DNA of 64,000 nucleotides from Nannocystis bainbridge (GTDB lineage: Bacteria > Myxococcota_A > Polyangia > Nannocystales > Nannocystaceae). Shown here one piece after another: positions 1,187 to 64,000 of the stretch. A program made the position numbers and the translations under genes. The stretch spans positions 192,001-256,000 of the forward strand of contig NZ_JAQNDL010000002.1 in NCBI RefSeq assembly GCF_028368995.1, read 5' to 3'. The notes beneath the pieces were generated by a model that saw nothing but the letters and a program-made list of their open reading frames with translations, was not told where the DNA came from and ran no database searches. Numbering within the stretch: the first letter of the stretch is position 1; each line of letters starts with the position of its first letter.

Positions 1187-1266
1187 GGGCATGTCCCGAA
1201 GGGCATGTCTCGAAGGGCATGTGTTGGAGGGCATGCCCGAAAGAGCATGTTTGAAAGGACATGTTC
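1187..1266. repeat. Tandem array of the 14-bp palindromic unit TGTCC-N4-GGACA (degenerate), exact 14-bp period
   Basis: GGGCATGTCC cgaa GGGCATGTCT cgaa GGGCATGTGT tgga GGGCATGCCC gaaa GAGCATGTTT gaaa GGACATGTTC. Confidence 0.9.
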
Positions 1267-1420
1267 AAAAGGCGAGCCGACGTCGTCTGGACGCAAGCGC
1301 GACTCGTGACGGGCGGCGTGGCCCGCGTGTCCGCGTCTCCCTGCGCTGCCCAGGCGTCCTCCGCCTCGCCGCGGTCGCGCCTCGCGCCTCGGCCCGTCGG
1401 TGGTTTATCCTGCGCTCGCC

Positions 1421-2326
1421 GTGGACCAGCCGCCGCGCGGACAGCCCGACCTGCTCGCCCTCGTCGCGCGCCACGCGACGAGCGAGGGGCGGACCGACTC
1501 GCCGTACCCGGGCCTGTGGTTTTGGCGCGCCGATCGGCCGTTCAGCGGGCGCAAGTCGCAGGCGCTCACGCTGTCGCTGCTGGTGGTCGTCCAGGGCCGC
1601 AAGACCGCCAACTTCGGCGCGCAGGCCCTCACCTACGATCCGCTCCACTACCTCCTGCTCACCGGCGAGGGCGAGTTCGAGAGCGCCGTGATCGAGGCCG
1701 ACCCGGAGCGACCGTACCTGTCGCTCAGCGTCGCCATGCCGCCCGATGTCGTCGCTCGCACCCTGATCGCCCTGGCCGACAGCGAAGTCGGCGGCGGCGA
1801 CGAGCCGGCGCCCGCGTACGTGTCGCGGCTCGACGCCCCGATCGTCGGCGCCCTGTGTCGCTTGCTCGAGGCAGTCGGCGATCCGGCCGAGCGGACCGTG
1901 CTGGCGCCGCTCATCGTCGAGGAGATCGTGTTCCGCCTGCTGCGCTCCGAGGCGGCGGCGGTGCTGCGCCGGGCCGTGCGTCGCGGCGACGAGGCCCGGA
2001 TCCAGGAGTCGATGGCGTTCATCCGCGCCCACGCGAGCGACCGCCTGACCGTCGAGGAGCTGGCCCGCCGCGCCGCCATGAGCCCGTCCCACTTCGCCCA
2101 CCGCTTCCGCGCCGTCGCTCGCGTCAGCCCGATGCGCTACGTCAAGCACGTCCGCCTGCACGAGGCGCGCGCGCTGCTGCTCCGCGGCGCGCGAGCCGGC
2201 GAGGCCGCCGATCAGGTCGGCTACGCCAGCGCCTCGCACTTCACCCGCGACTTCAAGAGTTACTTCGGCGTCCCGCCGGCCGAGTACGCCCGCCGTCTGC
2301 ACGCCGCGCCCGGGCAGCCCGCCTAG
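1421..2326 (+). CDS. AraC-family transcriptional regulator (AraC_N/YqhC-like)
   Basis: VVVQGRK N-terminal domain; C-terminal double HTH ([41 protein letters not shown]); start at 1400 or 1421 uncertain. Confidence 0.9.
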
Positions 2327-2343
2327 CTCGCGCGGCCCGCGGA

Positions 2344-2414
2344 TCGCAGGATCGGGCCGGCGTAGCGCCGCGCCCGTCCTCGCTGGTGCGTGCCTGCGTC
2401 TCGCAGGATCGGGC
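2344..2414 (+). promoter_or_regulatory. Direct repeat TCGCAGGATCGGGC x2, probable operator of the adjacent AraC protein upstream of the aldo/keto reductase
   Basis: Identical 14-mers at 2344-2357 and 2401-2414 between the regulator and the reductase. Confidence 0.6.
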
Positions 2415-2472: not shown

Positions 2473-3459
<987 letters not shown>

Positions 3460-3722
3460 GCCAGCGGCCGGCGAGGGCGCGGTGGCCGGCCGAGCGAGCG
3501 GGACGCCGAGGTGGAGCGTACCTGTCCGATGGGACAGGCCGAATCCGATGTTTGCGAGGTCGTCCGCTCGCGCGATCGTGACGCCGCGATCGTCGCCGCA
3601 GGTCTGCTCGTGGTGCGGCCGCCGGTCGAGCGAGCAGCTCGCCGGGGAGCTCTGCAGGCCCGGGCGCCCGGGTTGCGAGAGGTGCTGTCGCGGTTCTGCG
3701 GCAGCGGTCGCGTGGGGCCGCA

Positions 3723-3774
3723 GGACATGTCTGTTTGGATATGTGCGAATGGACATGTCGTCATGAACATGTCC
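3723..3774. repeat. Tandem 14-bp TGTCC-N4-GGACA-type array (about 3.5 degenerate units); a perfect solo copy lies at 3523-3536
   Basis: GGACA TGTCT gttt GGATA TGTGC gaat GGACA TGTCG tcat GAACA TGTCC. Confidence 0.85.
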
Positions 3775-4012: not shown

Positions 4013-4864
4013 ATGCCTGCACGCTTCGCTTCCTCCGCGCTCCTGCTGTCCGTCGCCGTCCTGCTCGCCTGCAGCCCGAGCGAGCCCGCGACCACCGACG
4101 ACACGACGGGCGGCACCGGCACCGGTGAGACCGACGCGACGACGACCACCGGCACGCCGACGACCACCGCCGCGCCGACCAGCACGAGCGACACGAGCAC
4201 CAGCGACGGCACCACCTCCGAGGGCACGACCTCGCCGGTCGACACCACGACGGACGCCGAGACGACGACGACGACGACCGGCGAGACGACGACCGGCGAG
4301 GCGACGACCGGCGAGACGACGACCGGCGACGAGACGACCACCACGACCACCGGCTCGACCACCGACGACACCGGCGAGACCACCAGCGGTACCACCGGCG
4401 ACGAGGGCCTCGGGCCCGACGCCCAAGCGGCGATCGACGCCCTCGAGCTGGTCGTCGACGGCGTGCTGTGGACCAGCGAGTCCGACTACCCGTGGACCGT
4501 GTTCGGCCTGCCCGACGCTGCGCCGATCGGCGTCGACAACCTCAAGGAGCTGCTCGCCCCGCAGATCGTGGTCGAGAACGGCGAGGCCCCGCTCGAGGAG
4601 CAGACGATCGAGCAGAAGCCGTGGGACAAGATCTTCCTCGACATGACGACGCCGCAGGACTGGTGGACCGACTACGAGATCCAGCGCGCCGAGCAATACC
4701 AGGCGATCCAGGACGTGCTGGAGGGCCACCTCGTGAACCTGAAGATGTTCCGGATCGGCGAGAAGTCCGGCAACTGGCTGTCGGGCGCGATCGACATGTT
4801 CGTGATCGGCGAGACGGTCGACGGCGACCTGGTCGGGATCCAGACGATCACCGTCGAGACCTGA
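4013..4864 (+). CDS. Lipoprotein with Thr-rich tether and C-terminal nuclease A inhibitor (NuiA)-like domain
   Basis: Lipobox VLLAC; Thr/Gly/Glu/Asp linker; GVLWTSESDYPWTVF..LVNLKMFRIG..IDMFVIGETVDGDLVGIQTITVET follows the NuiA pattern. Confidence 0.75.
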   Translation: MPARFASSALLLSVAVLLACSPSEPATTDDTTGGTGTGETDATTTTGTPTTTAAPTSTSDTSTSDGTTSEGTTSPVDTTTDAETTTTTTGETTTGEATTGETTTGDETTTTTTGSTTDDTGETTSGTTGDEGLGPDAQAAIDALELVVDGVLWTSESDYPWTVFGLPDAAPIGVDNLKELLAPQIVVENGEAPLEEQTIEQKPWDKIFLDMTTPQDWWTDYEIQRAEQYQAIQDVLEGHLVNLKMFRIGEKSGNWLSGAIDMFVIGETVDGDLVGIQTITVET

Positions 4865-4878: not shown

Positions 4879-4939
4879 GGGCATGTCCGAAGACACAGGG
4901 CCTTTCAGGCATGCCCTTTCGGACATGCCCGAAACGCCA
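4879..4939. repeat. Tandem 14-bp TGTCC-N4-GGACA-type array (about 4 units) between convergent genes
   Basis: GGGCA TGTCC gaag ACACA GGGCC tttc AGGCA TGCCC tttc GGACA TGCCC gaaa CGCCA. Confidence 0.85.
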
Positions 4940-4946: not shown

Positions 4947-5387
4947 TCACTGCTTGCGGACCACGCCCCCGTCGTCGACCGTGAACGTCAGCTCCTCGCG
5001 CAGCAGCTGGTTGCTGTCCTGCGAGCGCGACAGCATCACGGTCGCCGTGGCCTCCTCGAAGCCCTCGGCGACCGACAGCAGCACGCGGAAGGTCTGGGGC
5101 GTGCGCGGCGGGACGAAGCCGTCCCAGCGGGTCGTGCCGCCCTCGACGTTGAAGCCCTTGATGTAGATCTCGGCGACCAGCTTGTTGGTCTCGACGATGC
5201 CGGCGACCCGCATCTTGAGCACGAGCTCGACCTGGCGCGGGCCCTTGGGTTCGTAGGTGAGGTCGAGCTGGAGGTCGGCGGCGTCCTCCTTGACCGACTC
5301 GCTGCGCAGGGAGACCGGGCCGGCTGCCGGCTTGTGGGCGCAGCCGAGGAGCGACGCGGCGAGGGCCAGGGACACGAAGAGGCGCAT
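4947..5387 (-). CDS. Hypothetical lipoprotein
   Basis: Lipobox LLGC after hydrophobic signal; beta-rich mature part; GC3-biased codons. Confidence 0.75.
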   Translation of the reverse strand: MRLFVSLALAASLLGCAHKPAAGPVSLRSESVKEDAADLQLDLTYEPKGPRQVELVLKMRVAGIVETNKLVAEIYIKGFNVEGGTTRWDGFVPPRTPQTFRVLLSVAEGFEEATATVMLSRSQDSNQLLREELTFTVDDGGVVRKQ

Positions 5388-5420: not shown

Positions 5421-6587
5421 TCAGCGGGGCCCGAGCCCGAACTGCAGCGCGAGCTCCAGCCCGAGCGACAGCTCGAGGCCGCCGACGCGGAAGCGGGGCA
5501 CGCCGACCGCGTCGGCCAGGCCGACCACCCGCGGCCCGTCGTGGTCGTCGATCCCGAAGCTGCCGCCGAGCTCGATCCGCGGGCCCACGCGCAGGCCGAG
5601 CCGCGGCGACGGCCGAGCCCGCCAGCCCGGCGACAGCCGCAGGAACCCGCCCAGCAGCGGCGGACGGGCCACCGTGTCGTCGTCGCCCGACGCCGCCAGC
5701 GGCGCTCGCTCGCCCGCGCGCGTGACCCACCACGGCTCGATCGCCAGCCCGACCAGGATCGGCAGCTCGAACCGACCGCGGCGCAGGGCGTAGCCGGCCG
5801 CGATCGCCACGCGCAGGCGGCCGAGGCCGACCCCTGCCTCGGCCTGGCCGATCGCGCGGGTCTCGAGCGCCGCGGCGAGGCCCCGCGGACTGCGGACCTC
5901 GAGGCCGAGCCCGCCGCCGCCGCCGCCCAGGGCGCCGCCGTACGCTGGCGGACCGAGGCCGAGCACCGCCGCGGCGTGCAGGCCGACGCCGAGCTCCCAG
6001 CGTGGCCGATCGGACATGTCCTTTTGGACCTGCGCTTTTGGGCCTGTCTCTTCGGCCATGTCGAGGGGCGGCGACGGCTCGGGAGGTGGCGGCTCCGGCG
6101 GGGCCGGCTCGGGTGGCACCAGCTCGGGAGCGGCTGCGGGCGGTGGGATCGCCACGTCCTCCTGGTCGGGGATCACCGCGCCTTGCTCGACGGCGAAGAT
6201 CAGGTTCGCGGCGGTGCTGGCGACCACGCGGACCTCTTGCCCGATCTCGACCGCGAAGCTGCGCTCGTACGCGCGGCCGTCGGAGGTGATCACGCGGATC
6301 GTCCCGCGGTCGTCGGCGGCGCGGGTGAGCTGGAGATAGAGGTACGGCGCCTCGGTCGGGGCCGCGCCGCCGTGGCGCTCGATCGGCAGCCGCGGCAGGC
6401 GCAGGGCCAGGGCCGCCAGCACGGCGGCCTCGTCGAACCCGCGGATGTCGGCCCGCGCGGCCCGGAACTCTTGCGGCTCGCCGGTTGTCGCGTCACCTGT
6501 CCCCGGGGACATGCCCGAAGCGACACCCGGCTCGGCCGCGGGGGCGACCAGCACCGTGACGAGCGCGCATGTCGAGGCGAGGAGCAC
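5421..6587 (-). CDS. Secreted protein with Pro-rich linker and probable C-terminal outer-membrane beta-barrel
   Basis: Signal peptide, PEPAPPEPPP linker, amphipathic beta strands ending LGLELALQF; last genes of the ECF operon. Confidence 0.65.
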   Translation of the reverse strand: MLLASTCALVTVLVAPAAEPGVASGMSPGTGDATTGEPQEFRAARADIRGFDEAAVLAALALRLPRLPIERHGGAAPTEAPYLYLQLTRAADDRGTIRVITSDGRAYERSFAVEIGQEVRVVASTAANLIFAVEQGAVIPDQEDVAIPPPAAAPELVPPEPAPPEPPPPEPSPPLDMAEETGPKAQVQKDMSDRPRWELGVGLHAAAVLGLGPPAYGGALGGGGGGLGLEVRSPRGLAAALETRAIGQAEAGVGLGRLRVAIAAGYALRRGRFELPILVGLAIEPWWVTRAGERAPLAASGDDDTVARPPLLGGFLRLSPGWRARPSPRLGLRVGPRIELGGSFGIDDHDGPRVVGLADAVGVPRFRVGGLELSLGLELALQFGLGPR

Positions 6588-6606: not shown

Positions 6607-7605
6607 TCAGCCGCAGCCGTTGTCGACGCACACCGCCGCGCCGAGGTAGGCGGAGTCGCAGCAGACTTCGAGGTCGCCGGCGCAGGCCGACGGGCACGGG
6701 CAGGTCAGGCAGGCGCCCGCGTAGGCGAACGGGCGGCAGTCGCCCGCCAGGCACAGCTCGTCGCCGGGGCACGCGCTGCCGCAGTCGTCGCAGTGCAGCG
6801 GGTCCTCGGCGAGCACCACGCAGGCGCCGTCGCAGTCGACGCGGCCGTCGCCGCAGCCCTCGGCGCACTTGCTGGCGTTGCACACGCCCTGGTCGCCGCA
6901 GTCGTTGTCGCACTCGCCGCAGTGGCGCGGGTCGCTGCGGGTGTCGACGCAGGTCTCGCCGCAGCGGACCAGGCCGTCGCGGCAGCGACACTCGCCGCCG
7001 TCGCAGCGCTCGCGCTGGGCGTCGCAGGTGCCGTCGCAGCAGGCGTCCGCGGCCACGCAGCCCTCCCCGCACTGGACCTGGCCCTCGGGGCACGGCGACT
7101 CGCCGCAGGCGGTCGAACAGGTCGGATCGCAACCTTCCTGGCCTTCGGGACAGGCGGTGTCCTCGCCGCAACCTTCCTGGCCCTCGGGACAGGTCTCGGA
7201 GTCGTGCGAGGTGTCGTCGCTGTCGTGATCGCTGTCGTTGTGGTTGTCGTCGGTCGAGCCGGCGCCGCCGATGGTGTACTCCTTGAGGCAAGCCGGAGCG
7301 CCGAGGAGCAGGGTCAGGGCAGCGAGGCGGCGGAGCGCGCCTGGAAGGTCGAGGACGGGGGCGGGCGCGAGGCGGCGGAGCGGGCTCGGGGGGCTCGCGG
7401 TGGTGGCCGGATCGAGGGGGGCGGCGGCGAGGCTGCGGCGCGCGTTCATCGGGCACGGGGAGCTCGGGGAGCTCGCGGTGGTGGCCGGCTCGAGGGGCGC
7501 GCAGGCGAGGTCGCGCAGGCTCACCTCGCTCGCCTCGCGCGCTCGAGCGGCCGGGCGGAGCGGGCTCGCCGGGCGGGCCGGCCTCGCGCAGGCGTCGTGG
7601 GTCAC
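6607..7605 (-). CDS. Cysteine-rich lipoprotein (Stig1-like CVDxxxDxxHCGxC repeats); start uncertain (7605 GTG or 7449 ATG)
   Basis: LLLGAPAC lipobox-like segment; CVDTRSDPRHCGECDNDC and CVVLAEDPLHCDDCGSAC; GTGA overlap with the upstream stop. Confidence 0.7.
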   Translation of the reverse strand: MTHDACARPARPASPLRPAARAREASEVSLRDLACAPLEPATTASSPSSPCPMNARRSLAAAPLDPATTASPPSPLRRLAPAPVLDLPGALRRLAALTLLLGAPACLKEYTIGGAGSTDDNHNDSDHDSDDTSHDSETCPEGQEGCGEDTACPEGQEGCDPTCSTACGESPCPEGQVQCGEGCVAADACCDGTCDAQRERCDGGECRCRDGLVRCGETCVDTRSDPRHCGECDNDCGDQGVCNASKCAEGCGDGRVDCDGACVVLAEDPLHCDDCGSACPGDELCLAGDCRPFAYAGACLTCPCPSACAGDLEVCCDSAYLGAAVCVDNGCG

Positions 7606-8699
7606 GGCGTCTCCCCGCCGGCGAGGGCGGCGTCGGCTTGCTTGCGGTGGGCGCCGGTCGGGTGGTGCTCGAGATAGTCCTGCCAGCAGGCAGCGCGGGC
7701 GTCGGCGGGGCTGCGACGGCACAGACCGGCGCGCGCGTCGTCGGCGAAGCGGCCGGCGGGGAAGCGGCCCAGGTACTCGCGCCACGCGGCGGCCTGGCCG
7801 TCGCCGCCGCGCAACTGGCGGGTCAGCGCGAACAGATCGCCGTAGGCCAGCTCGGCCCGCGCGCCGGCGCCGGGCAGGGCGAGGATCTCCCGGAACTTGC
7901 GCTCGGCGGCCGCGAGCTCGCCCTTCTGCCACAGCTGTTGCGCCTCGTCCTCGAGCGACAATCCGGGCGCGGCGTCCTCCTGCGACTTGCGCCGGCGGGG
8001 GCCGTCCTTGGCGAGGGCTTTGCGCGGGCGCGTTTCGTCCGGGACGTCGACAGTCGGTGATGTCCCTCGGGACATGTCCTCGGGGGCACTTTCACGTGTC
8101 GTTTTGGGCATGTCCTGGGGGACATTCGTGACTGTCTCTTGGGACATGTCATTCCGGTCCGCGGCCCGCTCGGCGGCGCCGTCGGTGTGGACCTCGGTGG
8201 TGCCGCCGAAGCGCGCCTCGCCGTGACGCCCGCCCGCGCCGTCGAGGGCCGCCGCGGTGCCGCGCTCGCCGGCCCGCTCGGCCACGAGATCGGGGCCGAC
8301 GACGGCGAGCAGCACGGCCGCGGCGAGGGCCGCGACGACGCCGAACACCACGCCGAGGCGGCGGCGCCCGGGGACGGGGGCCGGCGGGATGCTGGCCAGG
8401 CGCCGCTCGGCCAGCTTGCCGTCGAGCTCGGCCTTCAGCGCGGTGGTGAACGGCGCCAGCGCCCCGGCGTCGCCGCGCCCGTGGCCCGGCGCGAGCGGGA
8501 CCACGGGCGGCAGGACGCCGGCGCGCGCGACCGCGTCGGCCGGGACGGCGGCGGGGTCGAGCTCGCGGGCGCGGGCCAACATGGCCGCAAAGTCAGGTGC
8601 GGGTCGGGCCCTGGCGACCAGGCGATCGAGGTGCTCGGCGGTGTCGCGGGCGAACGGCGCGAGCGCGGGCGGGGTGCCGTCTTCGTCATGCGTCGCCAT
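7602..8699 (-). CDS. Putative single-pass anti-sigma factor with C-terminal TPR/BamD-like domain
   Basis: Overlaps the ECF stop; one TM (LGVVFGVVAALAAAVLLAVVG); C-terminal helical repeats (WREYLGRFPAG, WQDYLEHHPTG). Confidence 0.7.
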   Translation of the reverse strand: MATHDEDGTPPALAPFARDTAEHLDRLVARARPAPDFAAMLARARELDPAAVPADAVARAGVLPPVVPLAPGHGRGDAGALAPFTTALKAELDGKLAERRLASIPPAPVPGRRRLGVVFGVVAALAAAVLLAVVGPDLVAERAGERGTAAALDGAGGRHGEARFGGTTEVHTDGAAERAADRNDMSQETVTNVPQDMPKTTRESAPEDMSRGTSPTVDVPDETRPRKALAKDGPRRRKSQEDAAPGLSLEDEAQQLWQKGELAAAERKFREILALPGAGARAELAYGDLFALTRQLRGGDGQAAAWREYLGRFPAGRFADDARAGLCRRSPADARAACWQDYLEHHPTGAHRKQADAALAGGETP

Positions 8700-9342
8700 G
8701 GTCGCGCTCCTTGTCGGCCGAGTCCTCGGTGAGCCAGCCGAGCCGCACGAGCTCGCTGCGGATCCGCGCACGCGCCCGGGTGGCGCGCACGCGGAGGTTG
8801 CCGGGCGAGATGCCGAGCTCGGCGGCGGCCTGCGGCGCCGGCATGTCCTGCAGGTCGCACAGCACGAACGCCTCGCGCAGCTGCGCGGGCAAGGTGTCGA
8901 GCACGGCGAGCAAGACCTCGGCGCGGCGCTGCCGGAGGTGCGCGCCCTCGGGGTCGGCGTCGGTGCCGACGCTGCTCTGGGCGCTGACGACCTCGAGGCG
9001 ATCCATGGCCTGGTCGCCACGGTAGCGCGAGCGCCAGTGCTTGCGCACGATGTTGACGGCGATCCCCCGCAGCCACCCGGCGAAGGCGCCGCGGCCCTCG
9101 AACTGGGCCAGGCCGACGAAGGCCCGCGCGAAGGTCTCCTGGACCAGGTCCTCGGCGGCCGCGGTGTCGCCGGTGAGGTAGGCGAGGTGGCGGAACACGC
9201 GGTCGAAGTGCTCCTGATAGAGGCGCGACCAGGCTTCGATGTCGCCGCCGCGGGCGCGATGAAGGAGCTCGGCCTCGCGGTCCTCCGCTTCGGAGGCGCT
9301 CGGCGCGGAGCCCGGACGTAACAGTTGCAGGAGCGAACCCAC
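8686..9342 (-). CDS. ECF RNA polymerase sigma factor
   Basis: Region 2 (AAAEDLVQETFARAF..FAGWLRGIAVN) and region 4 (LPAQLREAFVL..AAELGISPGNLRVRATRAR). Confidence 0.92.
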   Translation of the reverse strand: MGSLLQLLRPGSAPSASEAEDREAELLHRARGGDIEAWSRLYQEHFDRVFRHLAYLTGDTAAAEDLVQETFARAFVGLAQFEGRGAFAGWLRGIAVNIVRKHWRSRYRGDQAMDRLEVVSAQSSVGTDADPEGAHLRQRRAEVLLAVLDTLPAQLREAFVLCDLQDMPAPQAAAELGISPGNLRVRATRARARIRSELVRLGWLTEDSADKERDHGDA

Positions 9343-10513: not shown

Positions 10514-10774
10514 TCAGCGGTTCTGCTGATCCTTGCGCATCGGATCGCGCTGATCCGTCTCGACGTCCTGGCCCACGCCGGTGCGGCCACGGTTCGGGTC
10601 CTGCTGCTGCTGCTGCTGGTCCCGGTCGGTGCGCGGCGTGCTGGCCGGCATGTCGGGCTGCTGGCGGCCGCCCTGCTGCGGGTTGCGCTGACGATCGTCC
10701 TGCGTCTGGCCGACACCGCGGTCGCGGCGGTTGTCGTCCTGCTGCTGCGGGTTCTTCTGATTCGGGGTCGTCAT
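10514..10774 (-). CDS. Small Gln/Asp/Arg-rich hydrophilic protein (86 aa)
   Basis: AGGAGA RBS before ATG 10774; MTTPNQKNPQQQDDNRRDRGVGQ..; internal GVGQ repeat. Confidence 0.7.
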   Translation of the reverse strand: MTTPNQKNPQQQDDNRRDRGVGQTQDDRQRNPQQGGRQQPDMPASTPRTDRDQQQQQQDPNRGRTGVGQDVETDQRDPMRKDQQNR

Positions 10775-11058
10775 GGATCGTTCTCCTGAACATGTCCCTC
10801 GGGACAGGGCGGTGATTCGCCCGTCCGGGGCTCGGCGTCGGGAGCATGGTCGGCAGCGCGAGGCGGGCAAGTGATTTGGTGACGGTCGAAGCGCGGCGCG
10901 CCGTGCGACGATGCGACTTCGACGCGGTCCGCCTGCGAAACCGTTGTACCGCGGTGGCAGGGTCCGCTCGGGTGATCGGACCGGACTCGGCCTCGTGCGG
11001 CGCCGCGGCCACGCCGTCCGCGCGGACGGCGTGGCGTGCTCGACTGCCGCGCCCGGGC

Positions 11059-16782: not shown

Positions 16783-16857
16783 GGACATGTCACGGAGGAC
16801 ATGTCGCATGGGCTATGTCGCCGAGGACATGTCCATATCAACATGTCCTCGACGCCA
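16783..16857. repeat. Tandem 14-bp TGTCC-N4-GGACA-type array (5 units)
   Basis: GGACA TGTCA cgga GGACA TGTCG catg GGCTA TGTCG ccga GGACA TGTCC atat CAACA TGTCC tcga CGCCA. Confidence 0.9.
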
Positions 16858-19186: not shown

Positions 19187-19270
19187 TGTCCTGAAGGACA
19201 TGTCGTGGAGAGCATGGCCTTCGAGGCATGTCGCAGGGAGCATGCCCTTCGGGGCATGTCCCGACGGTCA
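19187..19270. repeat. Tandem 14-bp TGTCC-N4-GGACA-type array (6 units)
   Basis: TGTCC tgaa GGACA TGTCG tgga GAGCA TGGCC ttcg AGGCA TGTCG cagg GAGCA TGCCC ttcg GGGCA TGTCC cgac GGTCA. Confidence 0.9.
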
Positions 19271-57000: not shown

Positions 57001-58739
57001 CCGGCGATCTGCCGATCCTCCACGACTCGCTGGTCCGCTACGCGACGCTGGCGAGCAACCCCGACCTGTCGATCCCGCTGCTGCAGGAGGCCGCCAACGT
57101 CGCCGAGGCTCAGGCCGACCCGATCACGGCGATCATCGACCTGCGGGCGCTGCTCGACTTCGATCAGAGCCACGAGCAGGCGTGGGCGCGGCTGCTGCAA
57201 CTTCTCGAGGCGACCCAGGATCAGCCTGGTCTCATCGCCGCGCTCGATCAGCGGATCAGCATCACCGCCGACGAGAACGAGCGCCGCGGCCTCCGGCTCA
57301 AGCTGGCGCACCTGCAGGTCGAGGTCGGCAAGGTCGACGACGCCGTCACGATCTACAACGACATGCTCGGGGCCAGGCCCGACGACCTGCAGGCGATGCA
57401 GGAGCTCGAGAACCTGCAGCGCCGGCTCGGCAACTGGCGCGAGGTCCGGGACGTGCTCGAGCGCAAGCTCGACCTGCTGCAGGCGGGCCAGCGCGTGCCG
57501 GTGCTCGAGGAGATGGCGGTGCTGTCGGAGGAGAAGCTCGGCGACGTCGACGAGGCGATCGAGCGCCACCAGCGGCTGCTGCTCGAGGCGCCGCGGCACA
57601 CGCCGAGCCTGGTCGCGCTGTGGCGGCTGTACGAGGGCGCCGAGAAGTGGGAGGACCTGTCCCACCTGCTCGAGCAGTTCCTCGCGGTCCTGCGCGAGGT
57701 CGGCGGCGTCGATCAGCGGCGCGAGGTCGGCCTGCGGCTGGCCGAGCTTTACTCGGAGCGCCTCGGCGAGGCCGAGAAGGCGCGCGCCCTGCTCGAGGAG
57801 CTGCTGCAGACCGACCCCAACTCGGTGCCGGCGCTGATGGCCCTGGCCGCGGTCGAGGAGCAGCAGGGCAACGAAGAGGCGATGCAGGAGCTGCTGCAGC
57901 GCGCCGCCGGCCTCCAGCCGCAAGGCACGGTCGGCGCCGATCTGCAGCTGCGCCTGGCGCGGCTGGCCGGCACGCCGGAGAAGACGCGCGAGCACCTCGA
58001 GATGGCGCTCCACCTGCACCCGGCCAACGTCGAGGCGGCCCGCACCCTGCTCGAGCTCAGCCGCAAGGAGGGCTACTGGGAGCAGGTCGCGTACCTGCTG
58101 GCGCTGCTCGCCAGCCTCGCGGAGGGCGACGAGCAGCGCAAGCTGATCATCGAGCGCGTCGACCTCCTGGTCGAGAAGGTCGGCGACGTCGAGGAGGCCC
58201 TGCGCGCGCTGGCGCCGGTCTACGAGGTCGTCCAGGACGACATCGAGATCAACCGCCGGATCGCCGACGCGCTGTTCGTCAGCGGCCGCTTCGAGGACGC
58301 GAGCGGCATGTACGCGTGGCTGGTGCAGGTCGCGTCGGCGCAGCCGAAGAAGACCAAGCTGCTCGCGCACTACCAGACGCGCATGGCCCGGATCGCCCTG
58401 GCCAGCGAGACGCCGGACATGAAGGCCGCCCTCGACAAGCTCAAGGACGCCTACAAGATCGACACCACCAACGCCGAGACGATGGTGCTGCTCACCGACG
58501 TCTACGCCCACCAGAACGCGTGGGACGACTCGCTCAAGCTGGCCCGCGCGATGCTGCTGCAGAACGTCGACCAGTCGGGCATGGTCCGCCGCGGCGACAT
58601 CTACCTCCGCCTCGCCAACGCGCACCTGGGGCTGAAGGAGACGTCGAAGGCGCTGTCGATGCTGCGCCGCGGCCTCGAGGAGGACCCGGAGCACCCGGAT
58701 CTCGGCAACAAGATCCGGGAGATCCAGGCCGCCTCCTGA
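48048..58739 (+). CDS. Giant TPR-repeat protein (about 3560 aa), myxobacterial AgmK/GltI-like class
   Basis: Continuous TPR-like helices (ALDALERIY..W..L..L) over 10.7 kb; strong GC3 codon bias; no signal peptide. Confidence 0.85.
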   Translation: MSELRSVLFQFLTQPSDPARRSELAASLASVDLATARAEAKQDPGSGDAAAKVVGRMILDGASNEEVVEVAKLAAQKAPREGAGNDVALLAGVVVWRLSNQATQAEPYFRRVRRNEPANPQILAFYREMFSADADASQLMQVLVQARRSLKKEDTDQRFALAHEMADLAEKKLGSIDRAIEVWRSVLREDGYDPRAAKALERLYREGQKWTALVELLKEEFDRVQDRPENRDERIGRLLEIAELYRDQLRLDAMALSMLQRILEINPRHAATIKALADTYGASGRWNDLLTVYGRLLDAARAEKDVPRQIDMLRRVSSIWVDQLDNTSKGMEPLHEALRLGPDDRETRDALARIHELRKDWRALIDLRRDELAGASGERACELRIALARIAEDKLNDRAEAIAGWREVLAQHGEVEEAFVALIDLYEREGRWSEATDILRRQIDAAAAPVRKVELLGRLAHLQADRLGQPEAAIETWAAVARLDPSHHEASEALRAAYVAAGRWDDLVALYDAQGRLGDVLDVLYAAAEQLTDEDPRIALYQRIAGLAQGRLGAAERGLEALERVLALRPGDLAVARELLPIYREQGSWHRMLATYEVLLAGVSDDDDRLELLAVMRDIALQKLSDPKLALQWAARAYELRPTDGVLRAGLEAAAGRADGWSELSAIYERRIAAADCDNGERLELLDKLATIARERLGEPLEAQRFFRQILDLDPANKVAHAALEEIYTATSRWADLAGVFLIRLSVTRENNVRLPLLRRVGALQEHKVGDLDAAIETYREIVGIAAGDGEALDALTRLYRARGRWAELAEVLQRRLDSGEFRGEQIPVLFELSQLHATRLLDSQKAIAGFLQILAVEPDHLPTIDALEVLRRADPSSALAIMRGLLPYYRSIHDHGREAEAMEVITMAEPDAATRASGLSSLAALYSQMEGRRADALRVRRELFVMNPEDAELRGEVERTGRELQRMDLVAGAYGQILQNMRRAEEAAEAEGRAVTKEQQALYKDLLQSRAVALRDDLQQFDDAEVAFAELLDRDEAHEAAYHALDELLNRRDAHGELLKLYRRRADIIIDAGEQKRLLERIIAIARDVLNDREVATRTAEELLDLVPEDLGAVATLAGMYEFSERQDDHYALEELLGRWAERVDSDAERHDLASRRAGLRMDKLGDAYGAVELLQGVIAADPGHEHARRLLERLLDNPDVQLQVANLLEPIYDALKDHGAQVRVLRVRRAQAEKLGSTDAATALLLEIARIEENELGDSEAAFAAVREAYLLDPRRADARTELQRLGVELEKQRELVEVWQQALAKLPDNNSKIELLSRIAVVLDAHLDDRDGARSAYAELLALEPADVDLAKRATLALTRLHRAAGDAKALVEGLRGLLRYIDKDAEQVRILLEIAELHADKLEDPKGAAATYVEVLDIDPGNFQALDALERIYVDGGEWESLCRVLRQRVMSTDDPFEQARLWRKVGEIQRDHLSDPHQAIEAFQWIVDLAVAPKETQAALDAIVRLNLELERWPDAEEGLRRLIALATDDERKAELLGRAAEVVGEKLGRYADATDLLEEVLRLDPRDQRARATLTEYLARDEIRDRVIAVLYPLYESEQNWRALLDLEERQARHQPAGRHRMLALLQVARTHEERLSDPGRSFEVLIDALAEAGEQEEIVEVLDRIDRLGNELGRHEAVHDAYLQHVDNVSSSAVAHRMLASIGNIARVLGRNASARRAFERLFEASPVDIAAAEALEQVLVEENDYAALAELLVRRAQRSDSDLVRDAFLIRAAELHRTKLDRLEDAIDLYQKTSATAQRGDEVQAVLGPLYERTERWADLTEFLRRRLEGLSGRELVETHLRLAQLYREQLGDLSEGLRQFAEALKADPDYVVGTEQLARYLADEDLRPQVIAQLEPVFTAVGDWPRLIHIQELRLLEAGDDPHARIPILLKIARIYEDQMETPEGAFTTAGRAFAEAPTDGSVRELLARLAHVLNRVEELANLYTKYVEDNASDEGDETLAIVREAAELWSVALGQPRRAVPLYQRLIEARPDDRTVFPALEVALTQAEMYAELAAAYWHEADTSLDEERQLEVLQRLAELSLGILDDPDQAIRAYRRVLEAQPDHEAARSRLERVYAQRERWDDLIELLRERLVRTESPGEREVVLLNVADLQEQQLGSVDAALDTVELLLSEQPGNAGAVGSLERMAEGHEGQRVRIFGVLRPIYELTGNTMRLIAVDEWQLTQTEDPAQRHQIYREIAAYYGGLDQGQAYAFRTLARALAEPGPAGAIESLDAEIQQIARAHGWLDELRQALLMAAESATLQSDADRRVALELQAAQIAIDIGDFDGAARTLRHALEVMPDQPEVLALLDEALAGLADFEGLRGVLERRVAVAEDDEDRIGLLRRLARLVEEGLGQPETAEAVWQRILDIEPGSTDAMNRLRRLYAARGAYDLLIAIIGQQIDSADDPATRTALRKELARIHREARSDRDSEIETLRALLLDAPEDDEALAMLAQGLLAQDRHREAGDVIIERAAIAPSRERRVVLLLEVARLHIGPLGDAVGAMAHYESVFQVTPGHPEAIGDLMRLVRDKASSDAAAALIIPQLEQSGRWADLAEVYKARSELTDDPSEAAEALRQLARIRYERLNDPRGSLEASNLLLDRVAADEMRPVLEYTARLSVLLDRAEEHVESLARRAAVESLDPAARLLVAQAAAGVAEEILGDRARALGLLAAMLDAGIADEATARHIERLARAGGEKRLLARALRESAKLALGQSGRADILVRLGDAEFDTGELTGATEAYRDALDERPGFAGAVAGLERVLDRLQKTGGEVGQGLIEPLENSYHLAGNRPGLAKLARLRLQSATGADRAAALENLGRLVDEGGGSPDEALEAWGNLLQIDGAHPLAIERVVALSANKQLLIKAVQFMAGAIDAAREEQRSCSQLCIETTKILLRDLRQYTAALRALAPVLAENPDNLEALELQIMASRAAGDLPILHDSLVRYATLASNPDLSIPLLQEAANVAEAQADPITAIIDLRALLDFDQSHEQAWARLLQLLEATQDQPGLIAALDQRISITADENERRGLRLKLAHLQVEVGKVDDAVTIYNDMLGARPDDLQAMQELENLQRRLGNWREVRDVLERKLDLLQAGQRVPVLEEMAVLSEEKLGDVDEAIERHQRLLLEAPRHTPSLVALWRLYEGAEKWEDLSHLLEQFLAVLREVGGVDQRREVGLRLAELYSERLGEAEKARALLEELLQTDPNSVPALMALAAVEEQQGNEEAMQELLQRAAGLQPQGTVGADLQLRLARLAGTPEKTREHLEMALHLHPANVEAARTLLELSRKEGYWEQVAYLLALLASLAEGDEQRKLIIERVDLLVEKVGDVEEALRALAPVYEVVQDDIEINRRIADALFVSGRFEDASGMYAWLVQVASAQPKKTKLLAHYQTRMARIALASETPDMKAALDKLKDAYKIDTTNAETMVLLTDVYAHQNAWDDSLKLARAMLLQNVDQSGMVRRGDIYLRLANAHLGLKETSKALSMLRRGLEEDPEHPDLGNKIREIQAAS

Positions 58740-58775: not shown

Positions 58776-58845
58776 TGTCTTTTCGGACAGGTCTCCAAGC
58801 ACAGGTTCGAGAGGACAGGAACCAAGGGACATGCCCGTAAGGATC
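58776..58845. repeat. Tandem 14-bp TGTCC-N4-GGACA-type array (5 degenerate units) overlapping the ycaO start codon
   Basis: TGTCT tttc GGACA GGTCT ccaa GCACA GGTTC gaga GGACA GGAAC caag GGACA TGCCC gtaa GGATC. Confidence 0.8.
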
Positions 58846-60057
58846 GGCGACCACGACCTCGCCGCGCCCAAGGGCCACACGGCCGGGACGCACCGCACGC
58901 GCAGCCCGGCCGCGACGCTGGCGGCGTTCGGCCCGCTGATGCCGCGGCTCGGGATCACCCGGCTCGCCGACGTCACCGGGCTCGACGTCGTCGGCGTGCC
59001 GGTGGTCCAGGCGGTGCGCCCCAACGCGCGCTCGGTCAGCGTGTCACAGGGCAAGGGGGCCGACCGCGACGCCGCGGCCGCGTCGGCGCTGATGGAGGCG
59101 ATCGAGGGCTGGCACGGCGAGCGGGTGGCGGCGCCGCTGCGGTGGGAGCGAGCGGCGGCGCTGCGGCGCGAGGGCGAGGCGGTCGTCGACCTGCACGGGC
59201 TGCCGCGCCGCGAGGGCGCCGAGGTGCGCGAAGACCTGCCGCTGCTGTGGTGCCTCGGCTGGGACCTGCTGGCGCAGCGGCCGACGTGGGTGCCGCACGC
59301 GTGCGTGAGCGTCGATTTCGTGCGCGACCCACGCGAGCCGCTGCCGCCGTTCATCGAGAGCACCAGCGGCCTGGCGTCCGGCAATCACCTGCTCGAGGCG
59401 GTGGTGCACGCGCTGTGTGAGCTGATCGAGCGCGACGCGACGGCCCTGGCGCCGCTCGAGATCGACGACGCGCGCCGCGTCGACCTCGAGGTGGTGACCG
59501 ACCCGAGCTGCCGCGAGGTGCTGGCGCGCCTGGCGGCGGCGGAGCTGGTGGTCGGCGCCGTCGAGGTCACCTCCGACCTCGGCGTGCCGAGCTACGCCTG
59601 CCGGATCGTCGACCGCCCCGGGGCGCCGCGCTGGGCCGCGCGCGGGGCCTGCGGCGGCTACGGGGCCCACCTCGATCCGGCGGTCGCGCTGCTGCGCGCG
59701 CTGACCGAGGCGGTCCAGAGCCGGCTGACGCTGATCGCCGGCAGCCGTGACGACCTGTCCCTCAAGACATACGAGGCGTTCACCGATCCGCAGGCCAGCG
59801 CCGACGAGGCCGCGGCGCTGACCCGGGCGCGTCCGCGGCGTGCGCTCGGCCCGAGCCTGGCGACCGACAGCTTCGACGGCGACCTCGAGCTGCTGCTCGC
59901 CCGCGTGCGCGCGGCGGGCTGCCCGGCGGCGGTGGTGGTCGATCTGACGCGGGCCGAGATCGGGGTGCCGGTGGCGCGGGTGGTGGTACCAGGCCTCGAG
60001 GGCAGGTTCGCGGGCATGGCCCCGGGGTCGCGAGCGCTGGCGCGAGCGGGCCGCTGA
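58831..60057 (+). CDS. YcaO-family protein (resembles the TfuA-associated, non-PxP class)
   Basis: GTHR..GITRLADVTGLD..RPN..SVSQGKG..SALMEAIE; STSGLASGN..EAVVHALCELIERDA; RALTEAVQSR; VVVPGLE. Confidence 0.9.
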   Translation: MPVRIGDHDLAAPKGHTAGTHRTRSPAATLAAFGPLMPRLGITRLADVTGLDVVGVPVVQAVRPNARSVSVSQGKGADRDAAAASALMEAIEGWHGERVAAPLRWERAAALRREGEAVVDLHGLPRREGAEVREDLPLLWCLGWDLLAQRPTWVPHACVSVDFVRDPREPLPPFIESTSGLASGNHLLEAVVHALCELIERDATALAPLEIDDARRVDLEVVTDPSCREVLARLAAAELVVGAVEVTSDLGVPSYACRIVDRPGAPRWAARGACGGYGAHLDPAVALLRALTEAVQSRLTLIAGSRDDLSLKTYEAFTDPQASADEAAALTRARPRRALGPSLATDSFDGDLELLLARVRAAGCPAAVVVDLTRAEIGVPVARVVVPGLEGRFAGMAPGSRALARAGR

Positions 60058-60058
60058 G

Positions 60059-60232: not shown

Positions 60233-60415
60233 GATAACAGGACGACGGAGCTGGCCGCTCGGGTGCAGGACAAACCGCGAGCGCCGGGCGATCGCGGGGC
60301 CGGAGCGACGGGAGGCCGGTCGCGCGAGCCCCGATCGCCGGGGCCGCTGCGGACGCGACTCTGGCGGGGCGCTTCGGCGCGTGCGCGGCGGCGGCGGAGC
60401 GGGTACCTTGTCGGC

Positions 60416-61048: not shown

Positions 61049-61149
61049 CGGTTGCGGGTTCGGGGGCCGGCGGAGCGGTGCGCGTGCGGGCCCGGTCGCG
61101 CGCAGCCGGGCCGCGATGCGCCATGCGAGCCGACCTCGGCGAGGCGGAA

Positions 61150-61260
61150 CACGTGCGGGCCTTCGGGCGCGGGCAGCGATGATTTTCGTGATCCGAAATC
61201 GAAAGTCTGGCACGCGGGCGTTCGGGTGCGGGGCGCGACGATTTTGGTGATCCGGAACCG
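61150..61260 (+). repeat. About 59-bp direct repeat x2 upstream of the kinase, possibly a duplicated promoter
   Basis: GATTTT(C/G)GTGATCCG(A/G)AA at 61181 and 61240, with similar upstream flanks. Confidence 0.6.
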
Positions 61261-61296
61261 GCGGGTTGGAACCACTGCGGACAGGAGCGCCCCCGC

Positions 61297-64000
61297 ATGT
61301 CCGAAGCCAAGGTCCAGGAGTCCGTCATGAAGCTCGTCGATGTCGACGAGACCCACCCCGATCGACTCGAGGCCGAGGCCTCGCTCGACGGCGACACGCT
61401 GGAGACGCCGGGGCTGCGCCCGGAGGTGCTCGGCGACGCGGCCCAGCGGCGGACCAAGGCGATGATCCGCGCGTCGCTGTTCGCGGGCGCGGGCGAGGCG
61501 CCGACGATCGGGCAGTACCAGGTGCTGAGGCGCCTCGGCGAGGGCGGGATGGGGGTCGTGTACGCGGCCTACGACGACGCGCTGCAGCGCAAGGTGGCGC
61601 TCAAGCTGCTGCGCGGGGCGGCGCTGCGACTGCCGCAAGGTCGGGCGCGCACGCTGCGAGAGGCGCGGGCGCTGGCCCGGCTGTCGCACCCCAACGTGGT
61701 CCACGTGTATCAGGTCGGCGAGGTCGACGACGAGGTGTTCGTGGCGATGGAGTTCCTCACCGGACCGACGCTGCGCGAGTGGTTGGCGGCCGCGCCTCGC
61801 TCGTGGCGCGAGGTCCTGGCGGTGTTCCGCCAGGCCGGCGAGGGGCTGGCGGCGGCGCACCGCCAGGGCGTGGTGCACCGCGACTTCAAGCCGGCCAACG
61901 TGATCCTCGGCGACGACGGGCGCGTGCGGGTGGTCGACTTCGGCCTGGCGCATTTCGGCGGCGAGGGTGAGGCGCTGCCGGCGTTGCCCGCGGCGGGCGA
62001 GCCGACCGACGTGCTGCTGACGCAGACGGGCGCGGTGCTGGGGACGCCGGCGTACATGGCGGCCGAGCAGTTCGCGGGCGGACGCGGCGATCCGAAGACG
62101 GATCAGTTCAGCTTCTGCGCGGCGCTGTTCGAGGCGCTGTACGGGCAGCGGCCGTTCGCCGGCGCCGACGTGCGCGCGCTGGCGCAGGCGGTGGCGGAGG
62201 GTCGACCGCGGCCGCCGAAGTCCGGTCAGGAGGCGCCCGCGTGGCTGCACCGCGTGGTGGTGCGCGGACTGCAGGCCGATCCGGCCGCGCGCTGGCCGTC
62301 GATGGAGGCGCTGCTGGCCGCGCTACAGACGACCGACACGAAGGTGCGAGACCGGCGAACCTTCGCGGCGATCGCCTCGGGGTTCGGTTTGTTGATGGGC
62401 GTCGGTTACATGTCGGCGAGCCCCGAGGCGCAGCCGGAGGCGGTGGCGCAGGATGACGACGTGGCGGCGGCGCGGGCCGAGGTGACGCGGGCGCAGGACG
62501 CGAAGCGGCTGACGGAGGCGCGCGCCGCGTTGACGCGCGACCCGGTGGCGACGATCCGCGCGCTCGCGGAGCTCGGCGGCGACGAGCCTGCGACGTGGCA
62601 CGAGGCGCGTTTTCTGGCCGCGGCCGCGACGGCGCGCGGGCTGCCGGCGCAGGTGCTGCGGGCCGAGCGACCGCTGGCCGAGGCGCTGCCGCTCGCGGGC
62701 GGGGGGGTGATCGGGCGCGACGAGCTCGGCGCGGTGTGGCGCTGGGACATGTCCGCGGGGACAGGTGAGCAGGTGCTCGATCCGGGCGTGGCCAGGTCGC
62801 TGCTGGTGGCCGACCGCGCGCCGGTGTGGGCCGCCGTCGGGGAGGCTTCGGTGCAGGTGTTCGGCGACGGCGTGGCGCAGACGATCGATCTGCGTGGTGA
62901 GCCGGTCAGCCACGACCACTGGAAGCTGACCACCGACGGGCGCACGCTGGTGGCCCACGCGTGGCTGGACGGGCGCGGCATGGCCAGCCCGATCACGGTG
63001 CGGCTGTGGGACCTGTCGCGCCCGGGCGCGCCGCCGCAGGCGTTCCCGCTGCCACCCGGGCAGTGGCCGGCGATCTCCGCCGACGCGACCGTGATCGCCG
63101 TGGCCGACGGCGGAGCGATGCGGGTGATCCGGCCGCGCGACGGCAGTGAGGCGCGGCTGGCGTATGCCGGTCGGCCGTTCGAGATCTCGCGCGACGGGTG
63201 GTTCGCGCTGGCGCACCCGCACGGCGACGACGACGGCAAGCTCGACGTCGTCGACCTGGCGACGGGCACGGCGCGCCGGGTCGAGGCGGACTGGGGCACG
63301 ATGGTCGGCGACGGCGAGGCCGCGTTCATGCGCCCGGAGTACGGGCATCACGTGCTTTGGCGCGAGTCGCTGGCGACCGGGGCGGTCACGTGGCGGATGC
63401 AAGTGCCGTCGAGCCGCCGCGGCTTCGGGGCGCACATCCTCGTCGACCCGACCGGCGAGCGCTTCGCGCTGGCGCTCGGTGACGAGTGGGCGGTGGGCGA
63501 CCTGCGGACGGGCGGGCTGCGCTCGTTCTTGACTGTCCCGAAGGACAGGTTGCCGCGGTGGGGTCACGAAGGTGCGCTCCTGGTGGTGCACCGCCAGGAG
63601 GTGCGGGTGCACCGGCCGGCGGCGGCGGCGGTGACGCTCGAAAAGCGCGGACCCGGCTGCGCGCTGGCGCCGGGGGCTCGCTGGGCCGCGACGACGCCGT
63701 GGGATCGAGCTCGCGGCGAGTTCACCCGGACCGAGCTGGCGACGGGCACGACGGTGAATTTCCGCTGCTCCGATCCGCCGCCGGCGGCCGACGACATGGA
63801 CGCGATGTACGGGTTGTTGGGGTTCGTCGACGACGCGGGCCAGGTCGCGGTGATCGGCGAGGAGGGCTGGAACTGCTGGTGGGACGAGCAGCACGGCGCG
63901 CGCCTCGGGCCGCAGCGGCTGCTGGGCTTCGTCTTCGGGCTGCCGCGCGGGGTGGCGCAGGTGCAGAACGCCGAGATCGCCATCTGGAGCGGGCCGGGCG
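61297..64000 (+). CDS. Hanks-type Ser/Thr protein kinase with TM segment and beta-propeller-like C-terminal region; truncated at the window end
   Basis: AGGAG RBS, ATG 61297; LGEGGMGVVY, VALK, HRDFKPANV, DFG, GTPAYMAAE, DQFSF; frame appears open to 64000. Confidence 0.93.
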   Translation, partial: MSEAKVQESVMKLVDVDETHPDRLEAEASLDGDTLETPGLRPEVLGDAAQRRTKAMIRASLFAGAGEAPTIGQYQVLRRLGEGGMGVVYAAYDDALQRKVALKLLRGAALRLPQGRARTLREARALARLSHPNVVHVYQVGEVDDEVFVAMEFLTGPTLREWLAAAPRSWREVLAVFRQAGEGLAAAHRQGVVHRDFKPANVILGDDGRVRVVDFGLAHFGGEGEALPALPAAGEPTDVLLTQTGAVLGTPAYMAAEQFAGGRGDPKTDQFSFCAALFEALYGQRPFAGADVRALAQAVAEGRPRPPKSGQEAPAWLHRVVVRGLQADPAARWPSMEALLAALQTTDTKVRDRRTFAAIASGFGLLMGVGYMSASPEAQPEAVAQDDDVAAARAEVTRAQDAKRLTEARAALTRDPVATIRALAELGGDEPATWHEARFLAAAATARGLPAQVLRAERPLAEALPLAGGGVIGRDELGAVWRWDMSAGTGEQVLDPGVARSLLVADRAPVWAAVGEASVQVFGDGVAQTIDLRGEPVSHDHWKLTTDGRTLVAHAWLDGRGMASPITVRLWDLSRPGAPPQAFPLPPGQWPAISADATVIAVADGGAMRVIRPRDGSEARLAYAGRPFEISRDGWFALAHPHGDDDGKLDVVDLATGTARRVEADWGTMVGDGEAAFMRPEYGHHVLWRESLATGAVTWRMQVPSSRRGFGAHILVDPTGERFALALGDEWAVGDLRTGGLRSFLTVPKDRLPRWGHEGALLVVHRQEVRVHRPAAAAVTLEKRGPGCALAPGARWAATTPWDRARGEFTRTELATGTTVNFRCSDPPPAADDMDAMYGLLGFVDDAGQVAVIGEEGWNCWWDEQHGARLGPQRLLGFVFGLPRGVAQVQNAEIAIWSGPG

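Follow-up and report, generated by a model that had tools for sequence, protein, structure and literature searches.

A 14-bp palindrome in phased arrays at gene ends of Nannocystis as a candidate DNA site of a dimeric protein

In a 64,000-nucleotide stretch of the Nannocystis bainbridge genome (G000:C3:192001-256000; hereafter, the window), we analyzed a 14-bp palindrome, TGTCC-N4-GGACA (the box), which an earlier reading made from the sequence alone had singled out as a candidate undescribed site system. Based on its symmetry, its spacing, and its position behind genes, the box is plausibly the DNA site of a dimeric protein, with units stacked for cooperative binding at gene ends; we rate this reading as just short of probable. 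A search of the openly accessible literature found no description of the element in Nannocystis, as the sequence-only reading had supposed. The genome assembly (11.05 Mb, 5 contigs, 71.5% G+C) is 90.5% complete. Gene positions come from a crude, self-trained gene caller based on codon usage (7958 genes, 83% coding), and box counts by location are therefore approximate. Boxes are described as perfect or by their number of mismatches. Individual genomes carry G numbers (the N. bainbridge genome is G000), and genera carry g labels (g1 is Nannocystis; g2 and g4 are two related genera of the same family).

The box is far more abundant than expected by chance. All 14 perfect sites that had been reported in the window were recovered at their coordinates, and the claim that so many would not arise by chance was borne out, as 100 dinucleotide shuffles of the window contained a mean of 0.03 perfect sites and a maximum of 1. 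Six of seven reported near-matches also hold, with one mismatch (7139, 27437, and 30440) or two (15044, 44321, and 53437), whereas 55071 fails to match at ≤2 mismatches; its in-phase neighbor 55085 matches at this threshold. With ≤2 mismatches, the window contains 75 sites, compared with 24.9 ± 5.3 expected. Genome-wide, we found 1987 perfect boxes, whereas identical arms separated by spacers of 0-3 or 5-12 occur only 0-16 times each; one-mismatch boxes number 4258, compared with 161 for a reversed control pattern. Within predicted coding sequences (CDS) there are 768 perfect boxes (39%), compared with 18-24 after synonymous-codon shuffling, and intergenic DNA contains 1203, compared with 3-5 under a third-order Markov model. 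The 5-mer half-sites are not enriched (23,769 occurrences vs a median of 21,970 for letter permutations), which indicates that the unit is the whole dyad.

The extended consensus is R-C-(A/C) TGTCC Y-n-n-R GGACA (T/G)-G-Y. Its core reads T-G-t-C-c / Y-n-n-R / g-G-a-C-A, with flanks often extended to RCM...KGY; in 1562 isolated boxes, C occupies position -1 in 792 and G occupies position +14 in 735. One-mismatch variants are mirror-symmetric: changes at G2 (29) and C13 (21) are rare, and changes at positions 3 and 12 (946 and 943) and at positions 5 and 10 (633 and 756) are tolerated. The arms are kept while the spacers are free. Among sites with ≤1 mismatch genome-wide, 485 pairs are spaced by 14 bp, 305 by 28 bp, 232 by 42 bp, 128 by 56 bp, and 64 by 70 bp; none are spaced by 13 or 15 bp, and 2 are spaced by 16 bp. 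These distances, together with the comparison of spacers, agree with the earlier description of exact 14-bp tiling in which the arms are conserved and the N4 varies. Arrays of 3-8 phased units total 531, of which 417 are intergenic, 40 span a gene end, and 74 lie within predicted genes. Adjacent units have identical spacers in 3.9% of cases, compared with 1.8% for random pairs; because neighboring spacers are hardly more alike than chance, the arrays do not appear to be fresh tandem duplications.

Boxes are concentrated behind genes. The density of perfect boxes is 1.5 per kb in convergent gaps, 0.62 in tandem gaps, 0.23 in divergent gaps, and 0.083 in CDS. A box with ≤1 mismatch occurs in 59-69% of convergent gaps of 60-400 bp, compared with 1-3% of divergent gaps of 60-150 bp. 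Distances from the stop codon to the nearest box peak at -3, +2, +11, and +16 to +18, suggesting that the stop codon belongs to the first unit. For 1282 of the 7958 genes, a box lies within 30 nt of the stop codon, and for 2098 it lies within 100 nt. The proportion of genes followed by a box rises from 6.9% in the lowest class of G+C content at third codon positions (GC3) to 43.8% in the highest. Mapping against ori/ter gave an even density without a macrodomain pattern: every 200-kb bin on the 5 contigs, including the GC-skew switch on C3, contains 20-88 boxes per 100 kb.

Five other Nannocystis species are syntenic with G000 across the whole window, and genic boxes occur at orthologous places in all five. 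In an alignment of 18 genic boxes, differences affect 84 of 820 cells in the arms and 69 of 328 cells in the spacers, although these cells are not independent. Rare codons (e.g., ACA, TGT, CAT, CCT, and AGG) account for 25-58% of the codons in genic boxes, compared with 6.4% genome-wide. Whatever its mechanism, the box is an uncommon example in which selection at the DNA level has sufficed to impose rare codons on hundreds of genes. The gap after the gene ending at 60057 is unalignable between species, yet boxes are present in each. In G007, the counterpart of 60058-60415 is a minisatellite of seven ~54-bp copies, each with one perfect box and a half unit; in G001, the same place is occupied by a ~110-bp repeat, with a box or near-box in four units. 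The intergenic region around the box at 3523 is also unalignable in the five species.

The symmetry of the box could reflect recognition of DNA or of RNA. When variants are read in transcript orientation, those making G·U pairs and those making A·C pairs number 326 vs 276 in tandem gaps and 288 vs 360 in CDS. A UUCG spacer is not preferred over its complement (28 vs 37), and compensatory changes are present in only 596 of 7530 two-mismatch sites. We favor recognition of double-stranded DNA by a symmetric dimer because the box has no G·U tolerance, a strict register, and a tolerance of mismatches that is symmetric and base-specific. The dimeric, cooperatively binding DNA protein that the sequence-only reading had proposed thus retains support from symmetric mismatch tolerance, the whole-dyad unit, the 14-bp register, and the lack of a G·U signature, whereas the systems that it had named as analogies (parS/ParB, matS/MatP, SlmA, and Noc) do not fit, as described below.

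The alternative is an RNA-level element at gene ends, in which hairpins with a 5-8 bp stem and a tetraloop would end transcription without a U-tract or protect the 3' ends of mRNA; a factor might recognize the stem, as has been considered for the TRIT elements of Mycobacterium. We regard this as unlikely, although several observations are in its favor. The boxes lie right behind stop codons and often overlap them, which also applies to TRIT as summarized in PMC3152330. Their density is highest in convergent gaps, in which one palindrome can serve the two transcripts at once; the lineage has no Rho and few canonical terminators (see below); and the folds are stable, with -13.6 kcal/mol for 3515-3545 (box 3523) and z of -4.4 and -3.3 for the array at 19187..19270, a stability that speaks against DNA-level recognition. 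However, besides the lack of G·U tolerance and of a preference for stable tetraloops, specific bases are kept beyond what pairing requires, a series of hairpins has no need of a strict 14-bp register, and the conserved genic boxes are left unexplained. We also found no T enrichment at +14 to +23 past the box in transcript orientation, that is, no U-tract, and no Rfam family matching the arrays in the window. The box may still be read by an RNA factor that demands an exact stem sequence.

Based on searches with protein profiles, the whole family appears to lack Rho. Rho_RNA_bind (PF07497) was found in none of 41 family genomes; a separate survey of 41 genomes of the class identified it in 26, and in none of the four family members included. 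In G000, neither the rho NCBIfam model TIGR00767 nor TBLASTN with E. coli Rho gave a match, whereas the TBLASTN controls RhlB and TrxA did. A hairpin followed by a T-tract is present in only 167 of 958 convergent gaps. We rejected the idea that the box complements such canonical terminators, as they are equally common with and without boxes (18% of box-bearing vs 16% of box-free convergent gaps).

A survey of the family and of other genomes identified the box as enriched in three genera only. Perfect boxes number 114-2090 in all 10 Nannocystis genomes, 87-169 in all 5 genomes of g2, and 67-696 in all 7 genomes of g4, compared with 0-20 in 41 genomes of 14 other genera of the family and 0-8 in 16 other genomes of the class. 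A pattern of one and a half units occurs 311 times in G000, once in G013 (g4), and never in G011 (g2), and all 15 of the G013 boxes inspected are single. G013 also carries two copies of a repeat of at least 560 bp, in which a 493-aa open frame that matches no Pfam family has a perfect box close to its end. In a search of 185,579 species genomes, matches to the exact double unit were confined to Nannocystis, Mesorhizobium, and three single metagenomic hits. We rejected the Mesorhizobium sequence as the same element, as it forms the center of a 48-bp perfect palindrome that is unrelated to the box and is inserted at different loci. In about 14 Mesorhizobium species, this palindrome consists of a C-rich arm, two box-like units with complementary spacers, and a G-rich arm; from its sequence, it looks like a separate element resembling repetitive extragenic palindromic (REP) sequences or transposable elements of the miniature inverted-repeat type (MITEs).

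The window encodes no cognate protein, as had been noted earlier. Elsewhere in G000, which has about ten GerE-type proteins, we identified a 179-aa protein (G000:C3:1036257-1036793, minus strand) with a PAS-like domain and a LuxR-type (GerE) helix-turn-helix (HTH) domain (E 2.6e-11), and we put it forward tentatively as a candidate reader of the box. Full-length orthologs (E ≤ 1e-38) are present in 19 of 20 box-rich genomes (7 of 8 in Nannocystis, 5 of 5 in g2, and 7 of 7 in g4), whereas none were found in the 41 box-poor genomes of 14 other family genera or in 400 further genomes of the phylum (best match 2e-19). Four genomes with distant homologs, plus G021, contain 1-8 boxes. None of three arbitrary control proteins, a very small control, has the distribution of the candidate. 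Genus g32 (G041, G058, and G091) has 17-20 boxes, compared with 2-7 matches to the control pattern, which is slightly above other box-poor genera; it has no ortholog of the candidate.

In the HTH of the candidate (residues 115-167), 51 of 53 positions do not vary across the three genera, whereas overall identity is only 49-60%; a near-invariant HTH fits a binding specificity frozen by many sites. The predicted structure contains a small PAS-like domain and a four-helix GerE domain (mean pLDDT 72.4, pTM 0.41), and, over the whole chain, the folds that match it best are those of the PAS-HTH regulators VqmA and EL222 (E ~7e-4 to 1e-3). A symmetric homodimer joined through the PAS-like domain was predicted with a score of 0.60, compared with 0.00 for the best control; contacts agree by at least 57% between runs, and partner pLDDT is at least 62. 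Of 30 proteins solved as one-chain pairs, 20 attained that mark, as did 1 of 23 proteins solved as single chains; because like complexes are solved, the pass of the candidate may reflect likeness.

Several other readers were considered and rejected. PadR proteins recognize ATGT-N8-ACAT, which fits the junction between units of an array; a search for PadR gave no match in G000 and none in 6 of 10 further Nannocystis genomes. An extra NusG paralog reading a non-template hairpin was set aside because every Nannocystis genome with a match has a single NusG. Most of the other GerE proteins are widespread NarL-type response regulators, and a two-HTH protein is present in only three among the genomes listed. 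A search for autoregulation in 39 short divergent gaps bearing a box gave no lead among 20 small flanking proteins (one Rrf2, one ECF sigma factor, and six without a Pfam family); translated, five of these six look secreted or of low complexity.

We propose that dyad-symmetric sites, common to Nannocystis and, as sparse single copies, to two related genera, would be read in double-stranded DNA by a sequence-specific homodimeric HTH protein. In Nannocystis, the boxes have proliferated where protein-coding transcription units end. The head-to-tail spacing of 14 bp would place successive units at a 120-degree turn, with 3 units per 4 helical turns, and adjacent dimers could bind cooperatively, winding around the DNA. 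Bound arrays would form a barrier in a lineage without Rho and with few hairpin-plus-U terminators. Single genic boxes are kept by selection but would be too weak to stop a polymerase trailed by a ribosome. That such a gene-end barrier limits read-through and collision of RNA polymerases is the function we favor, possible if doubtful; we infer it from the position at gene ends, the tie to codon-adapted genes, and the absence of Rho. A more specific scenario strikes us as quite improbable: after the loss of Rho, a PAS-LuxR dimer would polymerize on arrays at stop codons and act, once the ribosome has left, as a bidirectional roadblock or insulator, a bacterial counterpart of termination by mTERF and by Reb1/TTF-I that might be tuned by signals via the PAS-like domain.

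A number of observations weigh against this proposal. For the barrier, only 9 of 102 tRNA genes have a box ≤150 nt downstream; the conserved boxes in genes and the 74 genic arrays of at least 3 units are awkward for a roadblock; and canonical terminators and boxes are not mutually exclusive, as their frequencies in convergent gaps indicate. Sister genera also lack Rho yet are box-free, and a 200-kb sample of one sister genus genome (G019) contained no comparable palindrome (5-bp arms, spacers 0-10). For the candidate reader, the families screened were GerE, PadR, NusG, and Y1 only. No box lies near the candidate gene in the three genera, its codon adaptation is only middling (GC3 at the 28th percentile), which is odd for a protein with ~10,000 sites, and its PAS-like domain points to a regulator of the ordinary, signal-responsive kind. 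In g2 and g4, one control protein is 77-78% identical, compared with 48-58% in other genera, whereas NusG does not separate g2 and g4 from g15; because g2 and g4 seem closest to Nannocystis, the co-occurrence of box and candidate may amount to one evolutionary event shared by many clade-specific genes. The reader alone also fails to explain the expansion of the box, as boxes in g2 and g4 are few and not in arrays.

Apart from the RNA-level element, we weighed two explanations in which a position behind genes is incidental. A selfish or drive-maintained repeat with no role of its own in the cell, either REP/MITE-like or a word favored by uptake, repair, or conversion (like uptake sequences or HIP1), might survive behind genes, where it is least harmful. 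Intergenic arrays do change rapidly between species with 90-93% identity in their genes, and they form species-specific higher-order repeats such as the seven ~54-bp copies in G007; promoter regions are avoided, as purifying selection predicts; the GC3 trend could mirror the residence time of genes in the genome; and HIP1, too, is described as a conserved, hyper-abundant word that occurs within genes (abstracts of PMC5861425 and PMC4390886). We nevertheless consider a selfish repeat rather unlikely. The RAYT/Y1 transposase (Y1_Tnp, PF01797) was rejected as the agent, with 0 matches in the 11.05-Mb, 90.5% complete assembly, whereas 6 of 14 control genomes match. The 14-bp unit has neither terminal repeats nor a target duplication, and the spacers of neighboring units are unrelated rather than duplicated, so the repeat-propagating enzyme that the sequence-only reading had offered as a second option is unsupported. 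Genic boxes have persisted in six species despite the rare codons that they impose, neither stop-codon phasing nor an exact register would be expected from passive tolerance, and no double unit turned up in 2.9 million viral contigs.

The other explanation, a site for a nucleoid-organizing or DNA-topology factor (a condensing protein, a gyrase-recruiting site like those reported for enterobacterial bacterial interspersed mosaic elements [BIMEs], or a methylation mark), would make the gene-end bias a reflection of supercoils or of tolerance. The roughly even genome-wide density, the boxes inside genes, and the tie to convergent pairs and to codon-adapted, presumably highly transcribed genes are consistent with it. 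However, it explains neither the start of arrays on the stop codon nor the scarcity of boxes at tRNA genes, and we judge it distinctly improbable.

Box sites within the window are listed in Table 1. Translated, the array at 8061..8146 is a low-complexity linker (..DMSQE..DMPK..EDMSRG..) with repeated D-M-S and D-M-P peptides. The open frame at 7602-9020(-) encodes a membrane helix and a C-terminal helical domain, with the box-written linker between them. Outside the window, a 2.2-kb gap left by the gene caller (G000:C4:257445-259600) is probably a repetitive gene whose repeated peptide unit is encoded partly by box-like sequence. The 3537-aa open frame at 48129-58739(+), probably a megasynthase, is 93% identical in four species and 90% identical in a fifth. 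The sole Rfam match in the window is a tRNA gene at 29885-29958(-), identified as tRNA-Met by ARAGORN. Outside the window, 31 tRNA genes lie within 2.6 kb (G000:C2:2556665-2559233), and no box lies behind this cluster.

Table 1. Boxes and phased arrays in the window, with their position relative to predicted genes and their conservation in other Nannocystis species
Position	Feature	Context and conservation
1178..1219	Three phased units (1, 1, and 2 mismatches)	4 nt past stop of predicted gene 749..1174(+); first unit kept in 3/5 other species, weaker box in a fourth
3523..3536	Perfect single box, extended arms CCTGTCC...GGACAGG	64 nt past stop of 2473..3459(+)
3728..3769	Three phased units (2, 1, and 2 mismatches)	Same intergenic region as box 3523
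4912..4925	One-mismatch box	Convergent gap, 4013..4864(+) / 4947..5387(-)
6003..6030	Two phased one-mismatch units	Within predicted CDS 5421..6587(-), local GC3 dip
6498..6525	Perfect box and phased two-mismatch unit	Near 5' end of predicted CDS 5421..6587(-)
7139..7191	One-mismatch boxes at 7139 and 7178	Within predicted CDS 6607..7605(-)
8061..8146	Array: perfect at 8061 and 8111, one-mismatch at 8075 and 8133	Within open frame 7602..9020(-)
10793..10806	Perfect box	Tandem gap, 19 nt upstream of start of 10514..10774(-); box there in 5/5 other species, perfect in 2
11581..11594	Perfect box	Within CDS 11059..11916(-); identical in 5/5 other species
16788..16857	One-mismatch box at 16788 and three-unit phased chain 16816-16857	–
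19187..19270	Six-unit 14-bp array, first unit perfect	Last unit (19257-19270) overlaps stop of 1272-aa gene 19268..23083(-)
23113..23126	One-mismatch box	Tandem gap downstream of 23373..29288(-); arms kept in 5/5 species
25633..25646	Perfect box	Within 1972-aa gene 23373..29288(-); arms identical in 5/5 species
27437..27450	One-mismatch box	Within 1972-aa gene 23373..29288(-); unchanged in 4/5 species
30440..30469	Two boxes 16 bp apart (one-mismatch, perfect)	Weakly predicted CDS 30102..30665(-)
56063..56076	Perfect box, read TCT GTC CTT TTG GAC AGG (rare codons)	Within 3537-aa gene 48129..58739(+); identical in 5/5 species
58776..58789	One-mismatch box	37 nt past stop of 3537-aa gene; box there in 5/5 species, perfect in 3
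59756..59769	One-mismatch box	Within CDS 58831..60057(+)
60063..60218	Gene-end cluster: perfect at 60063 and 60205, one-mismatch at 60109, phased pair 60145-60172	Starts 5 nt past stop at 60057
62750..62763	Perfect box	Within CDS 61297..(+), gene 81-84% identical; arms kept in 4/4 mapped species, spacer changes
63534..63547	Perfect box, read ACT GTC CCG AAG GAC AGG	Within CDS 61297..(+); rare ACT and AGG codons kept in 5/5 other species

How transcription units end in high-G+C bacteria without Rho and U-tract terminators is an open question, and Nannocystis offers thousands of copies of one conserved signal at that place. New here are the family-wide absence of Rho predicted from sequence, the rejection of PadR, NusG-paralog, and RAYT readers, and the candidate PAS-LuxR reader; with a candidate named, the question of the reader is directly testable. 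Cultured and sequenced strains include N. exedens DSM 71, N. pusilla Na p29, and N. punicea FL3. The box is also a practical marker: it can help to mark off genes and operons in the genomes of Nannocystis, a genus mined for natural-product clusters, and it could inform the design of insulators for myxobacterial expression.

Several known systems share features with the box. The parS, matS, SlmA, and Noc sites are short palindromes with dimeric readers, and each comprises tens of sites that are either limited to one chromosome region or kept out of it. The box likewise is a short palindrome at many chromosomal places; however, it is spread evenly over five contigs, without an ori/ter or macrodomain pattern, and is tied to the 3' ends of genes, and this analogy, drawn by the sequence-only reading, does not hold. 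The DUS and USS uptake sequences differ from the palindromic form and tandem arrays of the box. A canonical intrinsic terminator combines a G+C-rich hairpin with a U-tract, whereas the box has no U-tract.

TRIT (Tuberculosis Rho-independent terminator) of Mycobacterium, as summarized in PMC3152330, is a genus-restricted and mostly bidirectional palindrome in a narrow position overlapping the coding end; with 147 copies in M. tuberculosis, it is viewed as a single RNA hairpin terminator, for which the authors suspected an unknown reading factor. TRIT and the box share a conserved, genus-restricted palindrome at or overlapping the stop codon. In contrast to TRIT as described there, the box has ~2000 perfect and several thousand degenerate copies, forms phased arrays, is conserved in genes, and lacks G·U tolerance. 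REP sequences and BIMEs are abundant short palindromes in composite arrays behind genes and between convergent genes, and BIMEs are reported to bind several host proteins (summaries in PMC2817692, PMC3337134, and PMC3116915). These clusters behind and between convergent genes are shared by REP/BIME and REPIN-RAYT systems and the box. However, the box has no RAYT gene, and 39% of its perfect copies are in predicted genes, including five window examples deep in long conserved genes; REP sequences, in the same summaries, are regularly spaced and alternate in orientation, whereas the box consists of fully symmetric 14-bp units abutting head to tail.

HIP1 (GCGATCGC) of cyanobacteria is described in abstracts as hyper-abundant, 15- to 300-fold over-represented, both genic and intergenic, under selection, and long unexplained in function; it is an uninterrupted 8-mer tied to two methyltransferases (PMC5861425, PMC4390886, and PMC13756078). 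Over-representation in coding and noncoding DNA and conservation between species are common to HIP1 and the box. Compared with these abstract descriptions, the box is an interrupted dyad that is concentrated at stop codons and forms 14-bp arrays.

In sequence, the closest likeness is to LuxR-type operators. The site reported for the LuxR-type regulators CviR/CsuR is CTGNCCNNNNGGNCAG (dyad CTGNCC-N4-GGNCAG), and its ideal form, CTGTCCGATAGGACAG, as given in PMC12114271, contains TGTCC-N4-GGACA, with a core identical to that of the box. The 20-bp lux box, as printed in PMC4444344, shares its outer ACCTGT...ACAGGT with the extended box consensus ACCTGTCC-N4-GGACAGGT, and the candidate reader shares the LuxR/GerE HTH. 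These LuxR-type operators are single sites upstream of a few dozen promoters and are bound by acyl-homoserine-lactone receptors. In contrast to these receptors, the candidate lacks an autoinducer domain and carries a small PAS-like one, and in contrast to these operators, the box occurs at thousands of sites, avoids promoters (as its frequency of 1-3% in short divergent gaps indicates), and lies behind genes, in arrays.

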